Assembly: GCA_049976305.1 (NCBI GenBank)
Contig: JBMFIM010000001.1
Location: forward strand, 25,712-89,711
DNA length: 64,000 nt
Source: Candidatus Micrarchaeia archaeon
Lineage (GTDB): Archaea; Micrarchaeota; Micrarchaeia; Micrarchaeales; CABMGC01
Direction of reading: 5' to 3'
The notes beneath the pieces were generated by a model. That model did no database searches and had not been told where the DNA came from. It was given only the letters and a program-made list of their open reading frames with translations. The position numbers and the translations under genes are program-made. Positions 6,032-59,772 of this stretch are shown here, piece by piece (positions within the stretch are counted from its first letter, which is position 1; each line of letters starts with the position of its first letter).

Positions 6032-6072
6032 CAGGCTTATAAATTTTTATGCTGAAAATAGAAGGTGGGAAG

Positions 6073-7347
6073 ATGGCAGAGGAGTTGAATCCATTCAAAA
6101 TAGCACAAAAGCAGCTTGAAGATGCTGCGGAAATAATGCAACTTGACAGGCAGGTGCTTGAGCTTCTAAAGGAGCCGCAGCAAACAGTGATTGTGAATTT
6201 TCCTGTAGAAATGAGAGACGGCACGGTAAAGACTTTCACTGGATTTAGAGTCCTTTATAACAATGCAAGAGGTCCGGGCAAAGGAGGTATAAGATACCAC
6301 CCGCAGGAAAGCTTGGATACGGTAAAGGCACTTGCTGCATGGATGACTTGGAAAACTGCGCTTGCTAACTTGCCATATGGCGGCGCCAAGGGCGGAGTAA
6401 TATGCGATCCGAAGCAGCTAAGCGATAAGGAGCTTGAAAACTTGTCAAGAGGGTATATACGCGCAATAGCAAACTTCATAGGGCCGAATGTAGATGTGCC
6501 GGCGCCTGATGTCTATACCACTCCCCAGATAATGGCTTGGATGATGGATGAATATAGCAAGCTAAAGGGCGCCAACGAATTTGCTGTTATAACAGGCAAG
6601 CCTCTAGAGGTCTGGGGCTCGGAAGGCAGGTTTGACTCCACAGCCATGGGAGGCATGTATGTGCTCAGGGAGGCAGCAAAGCTAAAGGGCATAGACCTTA
6701 AGAAGGCGAAGATAGCAATCCAGGGCTTTGGCAACGCAGGCATGTTCGCAATGGACCTTGTTACAAAACTGTTTGGCTCAAAGGTAGTGGCAATAAGCGA
6801 TTCAAAAGGCGGGGTTTACTGCGAAGATGGGCTTGATTTTGAAAAGTTGAAAGAGGCCAAGGCAAAAACCGGCAGCGTACAGAACTATGAAGGCAATAAC
6901 GTAAGGAAGATAAGCAACGAAGAACTGCTTGAGTCTGATGTTGACGTGCTCATACCCGCAGCAATAGAAAACCAGATAACAGGCGACAATGCAGACAAGA
7001 TAAATGCGAAGATTGTGCTAGAGCTAGCAAACGGGCCGGTTACACCTGCAGCCGATGCAATATTATGGGATAAGGGAGTGCTTGATCTTCCTGACTTTCT
7101 AGTCAATTCAGGAGGAGTAATTGTTTCCTACTTTGAATGGGTACAGAACTTGCAGGCATACTACTGGACAGCAGACGAGGTTTACAAGAAGCTAGATACC
7201 ATAATCACTCGGTCATTCAACGATGTAATAAGCATGCAGAAGCAGTATGCTGACAAAGGAAAGAAAATAAGCCCAAGAACTGCTGCATACATAGTGGCTG
7301 TGAGCAGAGTAGTGGCTGCCATGAAAGTAAGGGGCTGGATCCACTGA
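6073..7347 (+). CDS. gdhA: Glutamate dehydrogenase
   Basis: It carries [29 protein letters not shown] and the Rossmann motif IQGFGNAG. The ORF opens at 6049, but GGTGGG + 3 nt precedes the ATG at 6073. Confidence 0.95.
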
Positions 7348-20130: not shown

Positions 20131-21137
20131 AATTAATGGTAGAGTATGCTATTGAAATAGACCATCTTACCAAAAAGTTTGGGGACTTCACAGCAGTAAA
20201 CGATATTAGCTTGAAAATAGAGAAGGGAGAGATCTTTGGCTTGCTGGGGCCTAATGGCGCGGGCAAAAGCACAACCATAAACATGCTTCTAGGCCTTATA
20301 GAGCCGACAAGCGGGACGATAATAGTAGAGGGCAAGGACATAAGAAAAAAATTAAACGAGGTAAAGCAGGATATTGGCCTGGTGATGCAAGAAACAATAG
20401 TCGAGCCAGAGCTTACAGCAGAACAAAACCTCAGGCTTTTTGGCAAGCTTTACCATATGAGCGAAGAAGAAATAGAAAAGAAAATACCGTTTTTGTTGGA
20501 CCTTGCTGGATTGACAGAGTTCAGGCACGCGTATGCTGGCACATTTTCTGGGGGTATGAAAAGAAGGCTGGAAACTGTAAAATCTCTCATTCACGACCCC
20601 AAGATTCTTGTACTTGACGAGCCTACAACCGGGTTGGACATACAAAATAGAGCCAAGGTATGGGATCTAATCCGAAAGATAAACAAGGAAAAGGGCGTGA
20701 CTGTGCTCATGACAACCCAGTATTTGGAGGAAGCAGACGAAATGTGCAATAGAATTGCAATAATAGACCATGGCAGAATAGTAGCACTAGGGACACCTAC
20801 AGAACTTAAGCATCAAATAGGAAAGAATGTAGTAGTTGAAGTTGCAACATCAAGACAATGGCTAGATAAAGTAGCAGAATTCCTTAAGAAAATAACAGGC
20901 GAGAAGGTAACAACTTCTGGGGATAGGGTCAGTGTTGCAATAAGCGGCGAGGCTGTAAAGAAAACAGAACAGATAATGAACGAACTCTCAAGGAACAAGA
21001 TACCAATAAGCGGCATAAGCATGCATGAGCCAACTCTAGATGATGTTTTCTTGAAGCTAACTGGCACCTCTCTTAGAGATGCTGCTTCCAATGAGGCTTT
21101 TGCCTCTAGAAGGGAAATGCTGATGAGAAGAAGGTGA
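20127..21137 (+). CDS. ABC transporter ATP-binding protein (ABC-2/DrrA type)
   Basis: It has Walker A (GPNGAGKST), the signature FSGGMKRRL and Walker B (ILVLDEPT). The start overlaps the padR stop. Confidence 0.92.
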   Translation: MKLMVEYAIEIDHLTKKFGDFTAVNDISLKIEKGEIFGLLGPNGAGKSTTINMLLGLIEPTSGTIIVEGKDIRKKLNEVKQDIGLVMQETIVEPELTAEQNLRLFGKLYHMSEEEIEKKIPFLLDLAGLTEFRHAYAGTFSGGMKRRLETVKSLIHDPKILVLDEPTTGLDIQNRAKVWDLIRKINKEKGVTVLMTTQYLEEADEMCNRIAIIDHGRIVALGTPTELKHQIGKNVVVEVATSRQWLDKVAEFLKKITGEKVTTSGDRVSVAISGEAVKKTEQIMNELSRNKIPISGISMHEPTLDDVFLKLTGTSLRDAASNEAFASRREMLMRRR

Positions 21138-30098: not shown

Positions 30099-30193
30099 GG
30101 GCCCGTAGCTCAGCTTGGACAGAGCGGCGCCGTCCTAAGGCGAAGGCCGTGGGTTCAAAATAAGCTTGGCTTATGACAATCCCACCGGGCCCG
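30099..30193 (+). tRNA. tRNA-Arg (CCU) with a 20-nt intron in the T-loop (59/60; intron 30160..30179)
   Basis: It folds as GGGCCCG-TA-GCTC-AGCTTGGACA-GAGC-G-GCGCC-GTCCTAA-GGCGA-AGGCC-GTGGG-TTCAAA[ATAAGCTTGGCTTATGACAA]T-CCCAC-CGGGCCC-G. Removing 20 nt gives a standard 75-nt cloverleaf. The insert folds as a bulge-helix-bulge (see finding). Position 32 is G and 27:43 is G.A. Confidence 0.8.
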
Positions 30194-30204
30194 ATGGCGA
30201 TAAG

Positions 30205-31218
30205 ATGACAAAAGCCGAAGAACCTAAAGAACCTAAGGTAGTAGTAAAGCCTGTAGGCGGGCTTGGCGGCTTAGACCAGATTCACGTAGCGTTAATAATA
30301 CTAGTTTGTGTGCTAGTGGCGCTTGTTGTTGTGCTGGCATACTACAGGCCTACAGCAATTACTGTAGTAAACAACACTACAGCAGCTAAACCCATGCACA
30401 CTTCCTCGGAAATGCTAAATCTTACAGAAAGGTTGCTTGCAAGCTATAACAATCTCAACTCCTCACTAAACCTTCTGCCGTATATAACCAACATCAGCGC
30501 TGCTAACATAACCTACATATCGAGCATTAAATCGTGGCTCATAAGGGTTCCTGCAGCAAATCCAGCAACAAACGTTTCTTTCTACGTTACCTTTTTGATA
30601 AATGACTCCAATACATCAAAAGTGCTGCCACTTATACAGACGGTGCTGCCCGCAAAACTTTCACAAAACAAAGTAGTGGCAAAGGGAGTGGTTCAATTAT
30701 ACAACCATTATCCGTGCAACAAGCAGCCTATGCCGGTTTATTGGTTTATAGATCCATATGCACCCGGTGGCATAAAGAGCTTAAACTATGCAGTACAACT
30801 GCAGAATATGCTAAAGGGCAAAGTCAATGTGACAATAAAGATATTCAGCACGCAGGCGACACAGGCAATAGCAAGCCAGTATGGCATAGCAAATGCGCAG
30901 CTTCTAGGCAAGTACATATTCTGTGCTTCGCTTCAGCCAAATTTTGAAAAGTTTGCAAACATTTTGAGCTCTCTGTTTGCAGGCTCTTTCATGGGCCAGA
31001 TAGAGCTCAGCAACATAGCCAACGAATCTGGGCTCAATTATTCTGAATTAAGCTCTTGTATAGGCACCTCTCAACCAATAATCAACAATCAGGCTCTTCT
31101 AGCAAGCTACTACAACATTACTCAAGTGCCAAGCGTTATCGTTGACTGCAACCTTATGACTTTGCCTCAGACCGCTTACGATGCTGTCTGCTTTGCAAAT
31201 AGCACACTTTGCAGGTGA
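30205..31218 (+). CDS. Membrane-anchored extracellular DsbA/thioredoxin-like-fold protein lacking the CxxC site
   Basis: The track start TTG 30166 overlaps the tRNA, so I use ATG 30205 (MTKAEEPKEPK). One TM helix is followed by about 12 sequons. MPVYWFIDPYAPGG...GKYIFCASLQ...NITQVPSVIV follows the DsbA-like (Thioredoxin_4) pattern, with APGG where CPxC is expected. Confidence 0.45.
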   Translation: MTKAEEPKEPKVVVKPVGGLGGLDQIHVALIILVCVLVALVVVLAYYRPTAITVVNNTTAAKPMHTSSEMLNLTERLLASYNNLNSSLNLLPYITNISAANITYISSIKSWLIRVPAANPATNVSFYVTFLINDSNTSKVLPLIQTVLPAKLSQNKVVAKGVVQLYNHYPCNKQPMPVYWFIDPYAPGGIKSLNYAVQLQNMLKGKVNVTIKIFSTQATQAIASQYGIANAQLLGKYIFCASLQPNFEKFANILSSLFAGSFMGQIELSNIANESGLNYSELSSCIGTSQPIINNQALLASYYNITQVPSVIVDCNLMTLPQTAYDAVCFANSTLCR

Positions 31219-31222
31219 ATTC

Positions 31223-31693
31223 ATACACATCATTGTAGGAATAGATGGCGGTAAGACTGCTGCGATAGCGTGCATAGACTTATACGGCAGGCCAATCAGG
31301 CTTTTCACAGGAAGATATGTGGGCTTGAGCTGGTTCGTCAATATGATAAGAGAGGTTGGCGAGCCGGTAATAATAGCGAGCGACAAAAAGAAGCCGGATG
31401 AAATTGTAAAGAAGCTTGGTGCTGTTTTTGGAGCTGTGGTATTTTCACCTCAAGAGGATCTTACAGTAGATAAGAAGGAGGAACTGGCTAATCACGCATT
31501 TGAAAACCTTCATGAAAGAGATGCCCTTGCCGCAGCTAAGGCCGCTTACAATGCATATGCTAACAAGCTAAAGCAGGCAAGCAAGAAAGCAATAGAACAT
31601 GGCATTGAAGCGGATAAGGCAATGACTTTGGTGATTGAGCGATACTCAATGCACGAAGCAATTACCGGGAAAAAGGCAAACAGGAAAAAATAG
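31223..31693 (+). CDS. DUF460 / COG2433 RNase H-fold (RuvC/YqgF-like) putative nuclease, short form
   Basis: It carries HIIVGIDGGKTAAIACIDLYGRP...VIIASDKKKP...HERDALAAAKAAY. The track start ATG 31181 adds 14 aa and overlaps the upstream gene by 38 nt. AGGTGA + 4 nt precedes the in-frame ATA at 31223 (see finding). Confidence 0.6.
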   Translation: MHIIVGIDGGKTAAIACIDLYGRPIRLFTGRYVGLSWFVNMIREVGEPVIIASDKKKPDEIVKKLGAVFGAVVFSPQEDLTVDKKEELANHAFENLHERDALAAAKAAYNAYANKLKQASKKAIEHGIEADKAMTLVIERYSMHEAITGKKANRKK

Positions 31694-50429: not shown

Positions 50430-50504
50430 AGCGAGGTGGGGTAGTTTGGAGTACCCGCTGGGCTCATAACCCAGAGATCGGTGGTTCAAATCCACCCCTC
50501 GCTA
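50430..50504 (+). tRNA. Initiator tRNA-Met (CAU)
   Basis: It folds as AGCGAGG-TG-GGGT-AGTTTGGAGT-ACCC-G-CTGGG-CTCATAA-CCCAG-AGATC-GGTGG-TTCAAAT-CCACC-CCTCGCT-A. The A1:U72 pair and three G:C pairs closing the anticodon stem are archaeal initiator features. Confidence 0.85.
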
Positions 50505-50763: not shown

Positions 50764-51453
50764 ATGTTTGCAAGAGAACATATTGGACTTAGCAGGGAAA
50801 TTAAAGATTTACTAATCGCCGATCTAGTCTTGACTTTAGCTTTTGATTTTGTTTTCAATGGAGGCATAGAAAGCGCACCTGAAATTGGCGCTTTGGCTTT
50901 TTTCTTTCCTATTGCGTTAGTTGCAGTGACTTTTTCTTTTGTTTTACACGAATACATGCACAAAGTAGTTGCTGAGCACTACGGAGCGGTAGCTGCCTTT
51001 AGAAAATCAGATACTGGATTGATTATTACACTGCTTACTAGTATGTTTGGCTTTTTGATAGGTTTGCCAGGTGCTACTGTGATCTACACCAGCTATTTCA
51101 CAAAAAAAGAAGATGCATATGTCTCTCTTGCAGGACCGCTTACCAACTTTGCAGTTTTCATAGCTTTCTTCGCACTGAGTCTCCTAGTGCCTGTACATAG
51201 CTACCTTTACCAAATGTTCTTCTACACTATGCTGATAAGTATAATCTTGGCCTTTTTCAACATGCTGCCAATATTCCCTCTTGATGGAAGCAAAGTGTTT
51301 AGGTGGAACAAATTAGTCTATTTTGCAATAATGGCTGTTATCTTTGCATTGCTGCTTCTCATATTTCCAACACCTTGGCTAATAGGCGATCTTGTAATAA
51401 TGTTTGTGCTGGCCTTCATAATGAGCATGTTTACTAGGGCGGTTCTTTTCTAG
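50764..51453 (+). CDS. M50 family (site-2 protease-like) membrane metalloprotease
   Basis: It has the HExxH motif (LHEYMHKVVA) and the NMLPIFPLDGSKV motif, in a polytopic protein. Confidence 0.85.
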   Translation: MFAREHIGLSREIKDLLIADLVLTLAFDFVFNGGIESAPEIGALAFFFPIALVAVTFSFVLHEYMHKVVAEHYGAVAAFRKSDTGLIITLLTSMFGFLIGLPGATVIYTSYFTKKEDAYVSLAGPLTNFAVFIAFFALSLLVPVHSYLYQMFFYTMLISIILAFFNMLPIFPLDGSKVFRWNKLVYFAIMAVIFALLLLIFPTPWLIGDLVIMFVLAFIMSMFTRAVLF

Positions 51454-52016
51454 GTCTTTTCCAAATATTCGACTAGCTTTTCCACGTCCTTTTTGAGGTT
51501 TGCTTTGGTGCTTGTGTTGAATATTACCAAATCTGCATGGTCTATGAGGCTTTGCAAGCCATGTGCAGGGTCCCTTTTTCCAGAGAACCCGTTTAGCTCC
51601 ATGTTTTCTATTCTTTTGAATTCTTCAAAAGTTTTAGGATCATCTGGCTTGTTTCTCTTCTTTATTCTCTCAAATCTCGTTCTTTCAGGCGCAACAACCG
51701 CCAAAACCAAGAAGTCTTTGATCTTGCTTCTGAAATATTCCTCTTCGTACGTACTTCTCATGCCGGTTATTGCCACATTCCCATTTTCCCTCTTTACTTT
51801 TTCATAGGTAAGCCTAGCTACAACATCATTCCCTTCTTCCTCTCTAAGCTTTGTAGCAAACTCCCTTATGCTTTTTGAATTTACCTCTAGGCCCCTTTTC
51901 TTCATCTCCTCTACTACAGCATCCCTCATTTCTACGATCTTGAATCCTTTTTCATGTAAGATCTCCGCTACTGTGCTTTTTCCAGAACCGGTATAGCCCG
52001 TTATGCCGATTATCAA
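51450..52016 (-). CDS. UPF0200-type P-loop nucleotide kinase (adenylate/dephospho-CoA kinase-like)
   Basis: It begins IIGITGYTGSGKSTVAEIL and resembles archaeal UPF0200 in overall shape. AGGTGGG + 3 nt precedes the TTG start. Confidence 0.6.
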   Translation of the reverse strand: MIIGITGYTGSGKSTVAEILHEKGFKIVEMRDAVVEEMKKRGLEVNSKSIREFATKLREEEGNDVVARLTYEKVKRENGNVAITGMRSTYEEEYFRSKIKDFLVLAVVAPERTRFERIKKRNKPDDPKTFEEFKRIENMELNGFSGKRDPAHGLQSLIDHADLVIFNTSTKANLKKDVEKLVEYLEKT

Positions 52017-52024
52017 ATTCCCAC

Positions 52025-52363
52025 CTATCTTATTTTGCTCCCCGGCCTGACTTCTTTGTTTGGCGTAAGTAAAGATATTATTCCATCATCCTCAGCAGCA
52101 AGCAGCATACCTTGCGATTCTACACCAGCAACATTCTTTGGCTTAAGGTTTGCGACGCAAACAATAAGCTTGCCAACAAGCTCTTCTTCACCATATTGCT
52201 CTCTTATTCCAGCGACTATCGTTCTTGTTCCAAGCTCTTCACCAAGGTCTACTGTAATTATGTACATCGGCTTCTTTGCCTGGTGATGAGGCTCAACCTT
52301 TACAATCTTGCCAACCCGCAGGTCTGCCTTTTTAAATTCTTCTATGTCAATAATGTCAGTTAT
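52025..52363 (-). CDS. tRNA-binding OB-fold protein (Trbp111/CsaA/EMAP-II-like)
   Basis: The track ORF (52025..52267) starts at MYIITVDLGEE. The same frame upstream encodes TDIIDIEEFKKADLRVGKIVKVEPHHQAKKP, which is the conserved first strands of the domain. There is no ATG/GTG/TTG in that stretch. AGGTGG + TTTT precedes the in-frame ATA at 52363 (see finding). Confidence 0.75.
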   Translation of the reverse strand: MTDIIDIEEFKKADLRVGKIVKVEPHHQAKKPMYIITVDLGEELGTRTIVAGIREQYGEEELVGKLIVCVANLKPKNVAGVESQGMLLAAEDDGIISLLTPNKEVRPGSKIR

Positions 52364-52387
52364 AAAACCACCTAATATGTGTTATTC

Positions 52388-52939
52388 ATGAGGCTTTTTA
52401 TAGGAATCGATGTGCCTGAAGAAGTAAAAGAAAAGGCAGAGCTCCTTGAGCAAGAAATAAAATCTTTGCAGGGATCTTTCACTTTTGTAAAAAAAGAAGC
52501 CATGCACATAACCCTCAACTTCATAGGGGAAGTCGATGAGCAAAAGACACAGGCAGCAGTAAAAGCCTTGAGCAGCATTTCAATAGCCAAGTTTCAGGTT
52601 TCTTTTGAGGGCGTTTCCTATTTCTCGCCAAGGTTCATAAAAGTCGTCTATCTGGGAATAAGCAAAGGAGTACAGGAACTGAAAAATGCCTTTTCAATTA
52701 TAGGAAACGCGCTTGCAGAAGCAGGTGTGCCATACGAGCACGACCTTCCTTACGTCCCGCATTTTACCATAGCTAGGGTGAAATACATAAAAGACAGGAC
52801 CCCACTTCTCAATCTTATCGAGAAGCACAAGGGCGAAAAATTTGGAGACTTCGAAGTAGAAGCCATAGCGCTAAAGAAAAGCACCCTTACCCCTGACGGG
52901 CCTGTGTATGAAAACTTGCACGAACTCAAACTTTTGTAG
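52388..52939 (+). CDS. thpR: 2H phosphoesterase, LigT/ThpR family (RNA 2',3'-cyclic phosphodiesterase / 2'-5' RNA ligase)
   Basis: It begins MRLFIGIDVP and has two HxT/S motifs (HITLNF and HFTIARV). The ORF opens at 52379. Confidence 0.85.
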   Translation: MRLFIGIDVPEEVKEKAELLEQEIKSLQGSFTFVKKEAMHITLNFIGEVDEQKTQAAVKALSSISIAKFQVSFEGVSYFSPRFIKVVYLGISKGVQELKNAFSIIGNALAEAGVPYEHDLPYVPHFTIARVKYIKDRTPLLNLIEKHKGEKFGDFEVEAIALKKSTLTPDGPVYENLHELKLL

Positions 52940-59161: not shown

Positions 59162-59772
59162 ACAATCATCCTTATGTCTACGACTTCATAGTCTTTTTCT
59201 CTGATAAACACAGGATTAAGGTCTATCTCTTTTATGTTGCTTTTTTCAAAAAGCCTGGAAAACTTCATTAGCAGGTTTACTACCATGTTTGTGGCTTTGC
59301 CGCCGTGTGTAATTATGTCTTTTGCCTTAAGCTGATTTATCATCTCCATTGCATCATAGCGCGTAATAGGGCAAAGCCTCAGGGCAGTATCTTTGAATAT
59401 CTCTACATATATGCCTCCAAGCCCTATGAGAACTACCTTTCCGAATTGGTTATCTGTATTGCCTCCCAGTATCGCCTCGACGCCACCGCTGCTCATTTTC
59501 TGCGCGAGTATTTTGTAAGGAGCATAGGGCTTTGCATTTTCAGAAAGCCTGCTGAAGGCTTCCCTTATGGCCTTTTCAGAATCCAAGTTCAGCATCACCA
59601 AGCCAGCCTTTGATTTGTGTAGTGCTTTGTCAGAAAGCGCTTTCAAGGCAATTGCGTTACCGTTGGCAAAGGCTATTGCCTCATCTGGCGTTTTTACATA
59701 CTCGGCATCAACGCTTTTTATGCCAAATTTATCAAGCAATGCTTTTGCTTTGAAATATTCTAAGAGCGTCAA
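59158..59772 (-). CDS. acdB: Acetyl-CoA synthetase (ADP-forming), beta (ATP-grasp) subunit
   Basis: It carries LLEYFKAKALLDKFGIKSV...ALKALSDKALHKSKAGLV. The start is ambiguous between TTG 59772 and ACG 59769 (see finding). Confidence 0.82.
   Translation of the reverse strand: MTLLEYFKAKALLDKFGIKSVDAEYVKTPDEAIAFANGNAIALKALSDKALHKSKAGLVMLNLDSEKAIREAFSRLSENAKPYAPYKILAQKMSSGGVEAILGGNTDNQFGKVVLIGLGGIYVEIFKDTALRLCPITRYDAMEMINQLKAKDIITHGGKATNMVVNLLMKFSRLFEKSNIKEIDLNPVFIREKDYEVVDIRMIV

Follow-up and report, generated by a model that had tools for sequence, protein, structure and literature searches.

A gene for a 112-residue tRNA-binding protein, located on the minus strand at 52025..52363 of the window (the whole 64-kb stretch of archaeal DNA analysed here), is probably translated from an AUA codon (52363..52361) by Shine-Dalgarno (SD)-directed initiation, as judged from comparative sequence analysis. 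By its best database matches, the window belongs to Candidatus Micrarchaeia, among the DPANN archaea. The core claim of the initial annotation—namely, that translation begins upstream of any canonical start codon, at the SD-spaced ATA 52363—is thus supported, with orthologues, selection, and protein fold each contributing to this reading.

The coding sequence, of the stand-alone Trbp111/CsaA/MetRS-C type, comprises 112 codons followed by a TAG stop (52027..52025). By direct reading of the minus strand, its frame is closed upstream by an in-frame TAA (52384..52382), and the first canonical start codon after this stop is an internal ATG (52267..52265), which encodes Met33, the first residue of strand beta2, and serves as the start of the default 80-aa ORF call. 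The codons between the TAA and this ATG are CAC ATA TTA GGT GGT TTT ATA ACT GAC ATT ATT GAC ATA GAA GAA TTT AAA AAG GCA GAC CTG CGG GTT GGC AAG ATT GTA AAG GTT GAG CCT CAT CAC CAG GCA AAG AAG CCG. ATG, GTG, and TTG are absent from all 38 of them, as had been pointed out in the initial annotation, the coordinates and codons of which for this gene proved exact throughout on re-reading of the minus strand. The same re-reading confirmed the reported succession of an SD sequence, AGGTGG (52373..52368), a TTTT spacer (52367..52364), and the proposed initiation codon ATA, which lies in frame 4 nt after the SD; the mRNA stretch directly ahead of the AUA start codon is AGGUGGUUUU. The predicted N-terminal tryptic stretch of a protein initiated at the ATA is (M)TDIIDIEEFK, and a product initiated at Met33 would begin with MYIITVDLGEELGTR.

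Comparison of the two translations with the Pfam tRNA_bind profile (PF01588; curated cut-off, 27 bits), as suggested in the initial annotation, showed that only the 112-aa form spans the whole domain. The 112-aa translation scored 98.5 bits (E = 2.4e-28), its residues 15-110 covering all 96 profile positions (1-96), and the 80-aa translation scored 75.6 bits, matching positions 19-96 only. An AlphaFold2 model of the 112-aa product, built on 44 homologues, has a pLDDT of 95.2 and contains a helix at residues 7-11, strand beta1 at residues 15-25, and strand beta2 at residues 34-39 (112-aa numbering). According to this model, the 80-aa form would miss the N-terminal helix and all of beta1, in agreement with the earlier proposal that the OB barrel is incomplete without the upstream codons.

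The solved structures considered were those of Pyrococcus abyssi MetRS-C (P. abyssi; PDB 1MKH), Aquifex Trbp111 (1PYB), CsaA (1GD7), Nanoarchaeum equitans MetRS-C (N. equitans; 5H34), and Trbp111 (8VTZ). Foldseek superposition of the model on 1GD7, 5H34, 8VTZ, and 1MKH gave TM-scores of 0.90-0.92 and rmsd values of 1.3-1.5 Å over 110-112 alignment columns, at 44-49% sequence identity. Solved members of the family, whether stand-alone or excised and with lengths of 106-113 residues, were aligned from query residue 3-7 through to the end; in the case of 1MKH, query residues 6-112 correspond to chain residues 4-107. Furthermore, the I-E-[ED]-F-K motif near the N-terminus is kept family-wide, bacteria included, and F10 is conserved in at least 90% of the 44 homologues. 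On the profile match and the predicted fold, the gene product is a stand-alone OB-fold protein of the tRNA-binding type (Trbp111/CsaA/MetRS C-terminal domain), complete at 112 residues. The product matches the known members (PF01588; 1PYB, 8VTZ, 1GD7, 1MKH, and 5H34) end to end and has the length of the stand-alone ones, and the protein itself shows no difference from them, only its translation start being unusual. NCBI lists one orthologue (P0001) as a MetRS beta subunit, by name only, and in some DPANN archaea, as exemplified by locus L078, the tRNA_bind domain is fused to MetRS.

The 5′ ends of orthologous genes, a comparison that the initial annotation had recommended, were aligned at the homologous start codon in ten lineages. 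ATA was found in five lineages (including that of the window), ATT in two, ATG in two, and TTG in one; that is, AUA or AUU occurs in seven lineages, all Micrarchaeaceae-like, and ATG or TTG in three. The arrangement is AGGTGG-TTTT-ATA in the window and in loci L001, L014, and L091; GGTGG-TTTT-ATA in L004, L005, and L175; GGTGA-TTTT-ATA in L172; GGTGA-TTTA-ATA in L006-8 and L012; GGTGA-TCTA-ATA in L013; AGGTGG-TTGT-ATT in L009-11; and GGTGA-TTCC-ATT in L173 and L174. The canonical starts at this position are found in L002, L003, and L092 (GTGG-TTGT-ATG), in L171 (ATG, without an SD), and in L023 (GGTGG-TGTT-TTG), and more distant Micrarchaeota (L015-L021) all have ATG at the homologous codon, mostly without an SD. 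As in the window, no canonical in-frame start precedes the conserved N-terminus in L004, L006, L013, L009, or L173, the sole exception among the ATA/ATT lineages being L172, in which a GTG lies approximately 50 codons upstream, antisense to the neighboring gene for a 2′,5′ RNA ligase (LigT).

L001, from another assembly, is 99.2% identical to the window in nucleotide sequence over 3.4 kb, and L014 and L091 are about 90.5% identical; these three loci are from the same or closely related species, and their ATA and surrounding sequence (AGGTGGTTTTATA / AGGTGGTTTTATAACT) are identical to those of the window. A sequencing or assembly error at the ATA is ruled out by the identical codon in these three other assemblies. 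Across all lineages, the homologous codon 4 nt after the SD is in frame despite indels of 9-12 nt (3-4 codons) downstream of it. The window and L002 differ by a 2-nt indel in the stretch that follows the upstream stop and precedes the start codon, which shows this stretch to be non-coding. The out-of-frame indel upstream, together with only in-frame indels downstream, argues that coding begins at the codon 4 nt after the SD. A reassignment of AUA to Met was also ruled out: relatives carry ATT or ATC at homologous sites and ATA is found at conserved Ile positions, such as I7 in I-E-E-F, so that no change of the genetic code is implied.

Selection on the N-terminal region was assessed with Nei-Gojobori counts. 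Codons 2-32 in nine lineages gave pS 0.60 and pN 0.20, a ratio of 0.33, compared with 0.22 for the rest of the gene, and codons 15-32 in the AUA/AUU lineages only gave pS 0.77 and pN 0.24 (pN/pS 0.31). By these counts, purifying selection acts on codons 15-32 in lineages that have AUA or AUU. Codons 2-14 alone showed low synonymous divergence (pS 0.21) with pN 0.16 and a ratio of 0.75; for residues 2-14, translation is argued for instead by the I-E-[ED]-F-K motif with F10, the frame-preserving indels, and the position of the SD. In a neighbor-joining tree of the concatenated LigT, tRNA-binding, and kinase proteins encoded at the locus, the two ATG lineages were nested separately among the ATA/ATT lineages, the latter being 59-68% identical to the window over the three proteins. 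The separate nesting and this level of identity are most simply explained by AUH being a long-maintained state of the clade. Rather than a recent lesion, the AUA/AUU start thus appears to be ancestral in a family-level clade of Micrarchaeaceae and to have been kept there for a long time.

In the proposed mechanism, AGGUGG would pair with the 3′ end of 16S rRNA, and the 4-nt spacing, which is standard in this genome, would place AUA in the P site, where initiator Met-tRNA (anticodon CAU) would be accepted despite a third-position mismatch, the first residue thus probably being Met. The efficiency of initiation at AUA would probably be low, because archaeal aIF1 destabilizes non-AUG initiation complexes, and this factor has been described as working against such complexes (PMC6237735). 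The initiator tRNA of the window is not unusual: tRNA-Met (50430..50504) has the hallmarks of an initiator, A1:U72 and the GGG/CCC anticodon stem, and an ordinary CAU anticodon.

Among ORFs of at least 90 codons lying close to their upstream stop in the 64-kb window, GGTG[AG] followed by 4 nt and a canonical start was found 14 times (ATG 8, TTG 5, and GTG 1), and two further ATG starts, at 20136 and 43770, have an SD spacing of 5; the earlier count of more than 15 other genes with the same SD spacing is therefore about right. The gene-like sites with a codon 4 nt after an SD number 22 in the window, with ATA occurring at two of them and six other non-start codons once each. Two ATA codons among 22 such sites are only marginally above background within the window alone, and statistically weak, so that the weight of the evidence is carried by the orthologues.

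A candidate TATA box for the tRNA-binding gene, TATAAAAA, lies on the minus strand at 52402..52395, corresponding to positions -39..-32 from the ATA, and falls inside LigT codons 3-5 (Leu-Phe-Ile). The box is conserved in all lineages, for which LigT coding could account. SD-led first genes in the window (starts 6073, 16194, 30037, and 40209) have TATA-like boxes between -42 and -29, and genes without an SD have them at approximately -31..-23. These positions imply that SD-led first genes would have 5′ leaders of roughly 10 nt starting at the SD, and those of the genes without an SD are consistent with leaderless mRNAs. Leaderless initiation at the ATA is unlikely, with the TATA-like box at -39..-32, as in SD-led genes, and not at -31..-23.

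The alternative that survives best, and which we nevertheless regard as unlikely, is a start at the near-canonical CTG encoding Leu15 (52321..52319), or at another such codon downstream, with the conservation upstream of it reflecting a DNA-level constraint from the LigT promoter. The resulting product of approximately 98 aa would keep the whole Pfam domain, which starts exactly at Leu15, while lacking the N-terminal helix, and the values for codons 2-14 (pS 0.21 and pN/pS 0.75) are compatible with constraint at the nucleotide level. CTG or TTG is available at Leu15 in several lineages, and the equivalent TTG is used by PGAP or other callers in L004 and L006 (P0006, P0008, and P0005). However, L009 has ATA at Leu15, and L172 and L173 have CTA, leaving no lineage-wide canonical start at this position. 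Nor is the Leu15 codon preceded by an SD, in contrast to the ATA or ATT, which has a perfect SD 4 nt ahead of it in every lineage with such a codon. Further features against a Leu15 start are the family-wide conservation, including in bacteria, of I-E-[ED]-F-K and F10 ahead of this residue, the alignment of solved homologues from query residue 3-7, and the frame-keeping nature of all indels after the codon 4 nt from the SD.

It is also conceivable, although improbable, that AUA is reached by termination-reinitiation following translation of a leaderless-type mini-ORF from the GUG within the SD (52371..52369). This mini-ORF, GTG GTT TTA TAA, has a stop codon (52362..52360) overlapping the ATA, and a transcript 5′ end close to the SD, as predicted from the TATA-like box at -39..-32, would make the GUG of the SD 5′-proximal. 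In all eight of the SD-bearing lineages examined, the +1-frame mini-ORF ends overlapping the start codon or no more than 7 nt after it, the ends by lineage being ATAA, ATAG, ATAG, ATGA, TAATA, TAATA, +3, and +7. Yet ATA or ATG followed by a purine makes such a stop automatically, and the GTG is intrinsic to GGTG[AG], so that the mini-ORF pattern is expected by chance. In addition, a second candidate gene with an AUA start, encoding a DUF460 protein and described below, is operon-internal, which does not fit this explanation.

A start at the upstream ATA 52378, as in the 117-aa PGAP model P0001 (MLGGFITD...), has very little probability. In its favor, no other alternative start of table 11 comes earlier after the stop, and the NCBI annotation of the 99%-identical orthologue begins there. 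However, the codon precedes the SD region, in part falling inside it, and has no SD of its own, the additional LGGF being translated SD. The 2-nt indel in L002 shows that the frame is not conserved in this stretch, and in alignments with the full-length solved homologues, which have 106-113 residues, the match begins only at query residue 3-7.

Equally remote is the explanation that the gene is decaying through a start-codon mutation, with only the 80-aa Met33 product or none being made, or that the ATA is an assembly error: default ORF callers do yield 80 aa, and several database orthologues have 80-98 aa, but the identical ATA is present in three other assemblies, ATA/ATT persists at 59-68% identity, the region upstream of Met33 has a pN/pS of 0.31-0.33 without frameshifts or stops, and strand beta1 of the OB barrel is missing from the 80-aa form. 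Homologues of the short form, the frequent occurrence of which would have favored a Met33 start according to the initial annotation, were not found to be common; the only short database entries, of 80-98 aa (P0005-P0008, P0010, and P0038), are mis-called orthologues of the same clade in which the upstream coding is intact. In L013, the homologous ATA was itself taken as the initiating M by PGAP (P0004, MVSIEDF), as was the upstream ATA in L001 (P0001).

The gene order LigT / tRNA_bind / kinase is kept in all related loci. The divergent LigT gene (plus strand, 52388..52939) starts at ATG 52388 (MRLFIGIDVPEE), not at GTG 52379 of the ORF list; LigT orthologues begin with M-R-[LIV]-F-I, and Pfam LigT_PEase was assigned to the neighboring genes of related loci. 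Downstream of the tRNA-binding gene and co-oriented with it lies a gene for a CoaE/AAA-like kinase with a TTG start (minus strand, 51450..52016). Its SD, GGTGG (52025..52021), overlaps the TAG that ends the tRNA-binding gene, with a spacing again of 4 nt.

LigT lacks an SD, and its candidate TATA box, TTATAAAA (plus strand, 52360..52367; -28..-21 from ATG 52388), corresponds, in reverse complement, to 8 nt on the strand of the tRNA-binding gene, namely the TTTT spacer, the ATA, and the base that follows it. The AUA could therefore be held in place as the putative LigT TATA core, which would be disrupted by a start codon containing G. The [C/T]TATAAAA form is also found in L004 and L172, with weaker boxes in L006, L013, and L173, and the box is lost in L002, one of the lineages with ATG, which has another AT-rich stretch further upstream. 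As regards its geometry, the LigT box is 2-3 nt closer to its start than in typical genes without an SD, and the DUF460 case is without such an overlap, both observations speaking against a dual-use TATA element.

The second candidate gene with an AUA start encodes the DUF460 protein (plus strand, 31223..31693). ATA 31223 is preceded by AGGTGA and an ATTC spacer, the SD including the TGA stop of the upstream gene (31216..31218). Its orthologues show AGGTGA-ATGC-ATA (L178), GGGTGA-ATCA-ATC (L176), and AAGTGA-ACTA-ATG (L177). In this genome, an in-frame ATG (31181) and TTG (31193) are located upstream, overlapping the preceding gene, and the case for the ATA as the DUF460 start, judged from these alignments, is supportive and not compelling. 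The initial annotation had counted five loci in which AUA or ACG would serve as initiation codons; DUF460 ATA 31223 stands as one further credible case, and the generalization, including that to ACG, is not supported. ACG 59769 is directly preceded by an in-frame TTG (59772), so that initiation at ACG is unneeded there. As for the other codons found 4 nt after an SD, GCG 25628 looks like chance, as do ACC 31440, GTT 28501, and TTC 676, which are antisense. All the non-canonical starts seen (AUA, AUU, and AUC) differ from AUG at the third position only. The neighboring genes in related loci were scanned for AUH starts, with too few SD-led genes being present among them to speak for or against more such starts.

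In all the ATA, ATT, and ATC cases—that is, in seven lineages of the tRNA-binding gene and three of DUF460—the GGTG[AG] is intact, and the three ATG cases have GTGG (L002), no SD (L171), and AAGTGA (DUF460, L177). This association of an intact SD with AUH and of a weakened SD with AUG, in 10 and 3 lineage-gene cases over two genes, respectively, is suggestive only, the lineages not being independent. Such co-variation is consistent with the SD and the start codon having evolved to compensate for each other's strength.

A broader reading, which we put forward as a tentative and rather doubtful one, is that Micrarchaeaceae ribosomes routinely accept AUA, AUU, and AUC behind a strong, optimally spaced SD, with the AUA of the tRNA-binding gene being additionally locked by the LigT TATA. 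If true, up to about one in ten SD-led genes in the window (2 ATA vs. 14 canonical starts) would be initiated in this way, implying that a DPANN archaeon, the initiation factors of which are eukaryote-like, has lineage-wide relaxed discrimination at the third position of the start codon, and the same 8 bp would provide a start codon in one direction and a promoter in the opposite one.

Conserved near-cognate starts are familiar from bacteria, in which infC, encoding IF3, and pcnB have AUU start codons conserved across orthologues. The likeness to the AUA start of the tRNA-binding gene lies in a start codon that is near-cognate at the third position (AUH), is kept in orthologues, and supports SD-dependent and probably low, factor-sensitive initiation. 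In contrast, the present case concerns an archaeon with aIF1, aIF1A, and aIF2, and not IF3, and AUA predominates over AUU. Unlike infC, the gene encodes a tRNA-binding cofactor and not a fidelity factor, with no autoregulatory loop evident, and proofreading of start codons is not known to be functionally linked to any Trbp111-like protein. Animal mitochondria also use AUA and AUU as start codons; the codons are the same, but AUA has been reassigned to Met in mitochondria and is not reassigned here.

Within the archaea, ribosome profiling of Haloferax volcanii revealed approximately 30% of putative alternative initiation sites to be near-cognate, and these were set aside as possible false positives (PMC7261190). 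These sites are alike in indicating that near-cognate initiation may occur in archaea, although none was demonstrated to be the conserved main start of an essential domain (PMC7261190), whereas the evidence presented here is evolutionary and concerns the principal start of a conserved gene in a DPANN lineage. Reviews of archaeal initiation list AUG, GUG, and UUG only (PMC7531240). No report of AUA or AUU as main starts in archaea or Micrarchaeota was found in the literature, the coverage of which was incomplete, so that this absence is weak evidence. Overall, an AUA-type start is not normally credited to archaea, the conserved near-cognate start itself being known from bacteria.

With respect to annotation, the tRNA-binding protein of most Micrarchaeaceae genomes is cut down to 80-98 aa by Prodigal-type callers, and its orthologues receive four different N-termini from PGAP; recognition of the SD, the 4-nt spacing, and AUH would correct such DPANN gene models. 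AGGUGG-UUUU-AUA also constitutes a defined natural sequence for probing archaeal start-codon fidelity in vitro. Archaeal initiation is taught as proceeding from AUG, GUG, and UUG only, policed by aIF1. That AUA or AUU has been retained throughout a family-level clade argues that, as with AUU in bacterial infC, near-cognate initiation anchored by an SD can set gene expression in archaea in a workable and evolutionarily stable manner.

Public annotations of the tRNA-binding orthologues (P0001, P0004-P0008, P0010, and P0038, from loci L001, L013, L175, L004, L172, L006, L173, and L009) contain at least five different start choices, namely an upstream ATA, the homologous ATA, TTG at Leu15, GTG at Val17 (both residues counted from the proposed ATA start, 52363..52361), and internal ATGs, and the resulting models span 80-117 aa. 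A second candidate AUA start is that of the DUF460 gene (within 31181-31693, plus strand), where AGGTGA, which includes the TGA stop of the gene at 30166..31218, is followed by ATTC and then ATA 31223. In orthologues, the corresponding codon is ATA (L178), ATC (L176), or ATG with a weakened Shine-Dalgarno (SD) sequence (L177). The in-frame ATG 31181 and TTG 31193 upstream both lack an SD and overlap the preceding gene.

ACG had also been proposed in the initial annotation as an initiation codon. At 59769-59772 (minus strand; GGTGG-T-TTG-ACG), ACG lies at the standard 4-nt spacing and is directly preceded by an in-frame TTG at 1-nt spacing from GGTGG; because either codon could be used, ACG initiation at 59769 is not required. 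The tRNA-Met(CAU) at 50430-50504 (plus strand) carries archaeal initiator hallmarks: an A1:U72 pair is present, and the anticodon stem has three G:C pairs at its base. It has a normal anticodon loop, CUCAUAA.

Within the SD of the tRNA-binding gene, a GTG opens a mini-ORF in the +1 frame (GTG GTT TTA TAA, 52360-52371, minus strand), the stop of which overlaps the ATA start. Equivalent mini-ORFs, ending in overlap with the start codon or no more than 7 nt after it, were found in all SD-bearing lineages examined; the mini-ORF is probably a by-product of sequence constraints.

Two promoter-to-start geometries, split by the presence of an SD, were observed window-wide. SD-led first genes (e.g., starts 6073, 16194, 30037, and 40209) have a TATA-like box within about -42 to -29, from which 5′ leaders of ~10 nt beginning at the SD are predicted, and genes without an SD (e.g., starts 8845, 9012, 34266, 46292, and 47689) have the box at about -31..-23, predicting leaderless mRNAs. 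At 6049-6075 (plus strand), the mechanical ORF start ATG 6049 falls inside or beside the TATA-like box TTATAAATTTTTAT; this 424-aa gene more likely starts at the SD-spaced ATG 6073 (AAGGTGG-GAAG-ATG).

Codons 2-14 of the tRNA-binding gene (52325-52360, minus strand) show an unusually low synonymous divergence among lineages (pS 0.21, Nei-Gojobori counts) compared with ~0.7-0.77 in the rest of the gene. This may stem from AT-biased two-fold codons (GAA, TTT, AAA), or alternatively a DNA or RNA signal, for example the promoter region of the divergent 2′,5′ RNA ligase gene (LigT), may overlap these codons. The plus strand of this stretch contains TTTTTAAATT, at -59..-50 relative to the LigT ATG. 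The LigT start, given as GTG 52379 (plus strand) in the ORF list, was reassigned to ATG 52388 (52379-52390), since every orthologue starts M-R-[LIV]-F-I; in L171, LigT starts with TTG. Each of the two divergent genes has its candidate TATA box in the opening codons of its neighbour: TATAAAAA (52402..52395, minus strand) lies inside LigT codons 3-5 (Leu-Phe-Ile), and TTATAAAA (52360..52367, plus strand) covers the ATA start and spacer of the tRNA-binding gene. Overall, 52360-52402 looks, on both strands, like a very compact bidirectional promoter.
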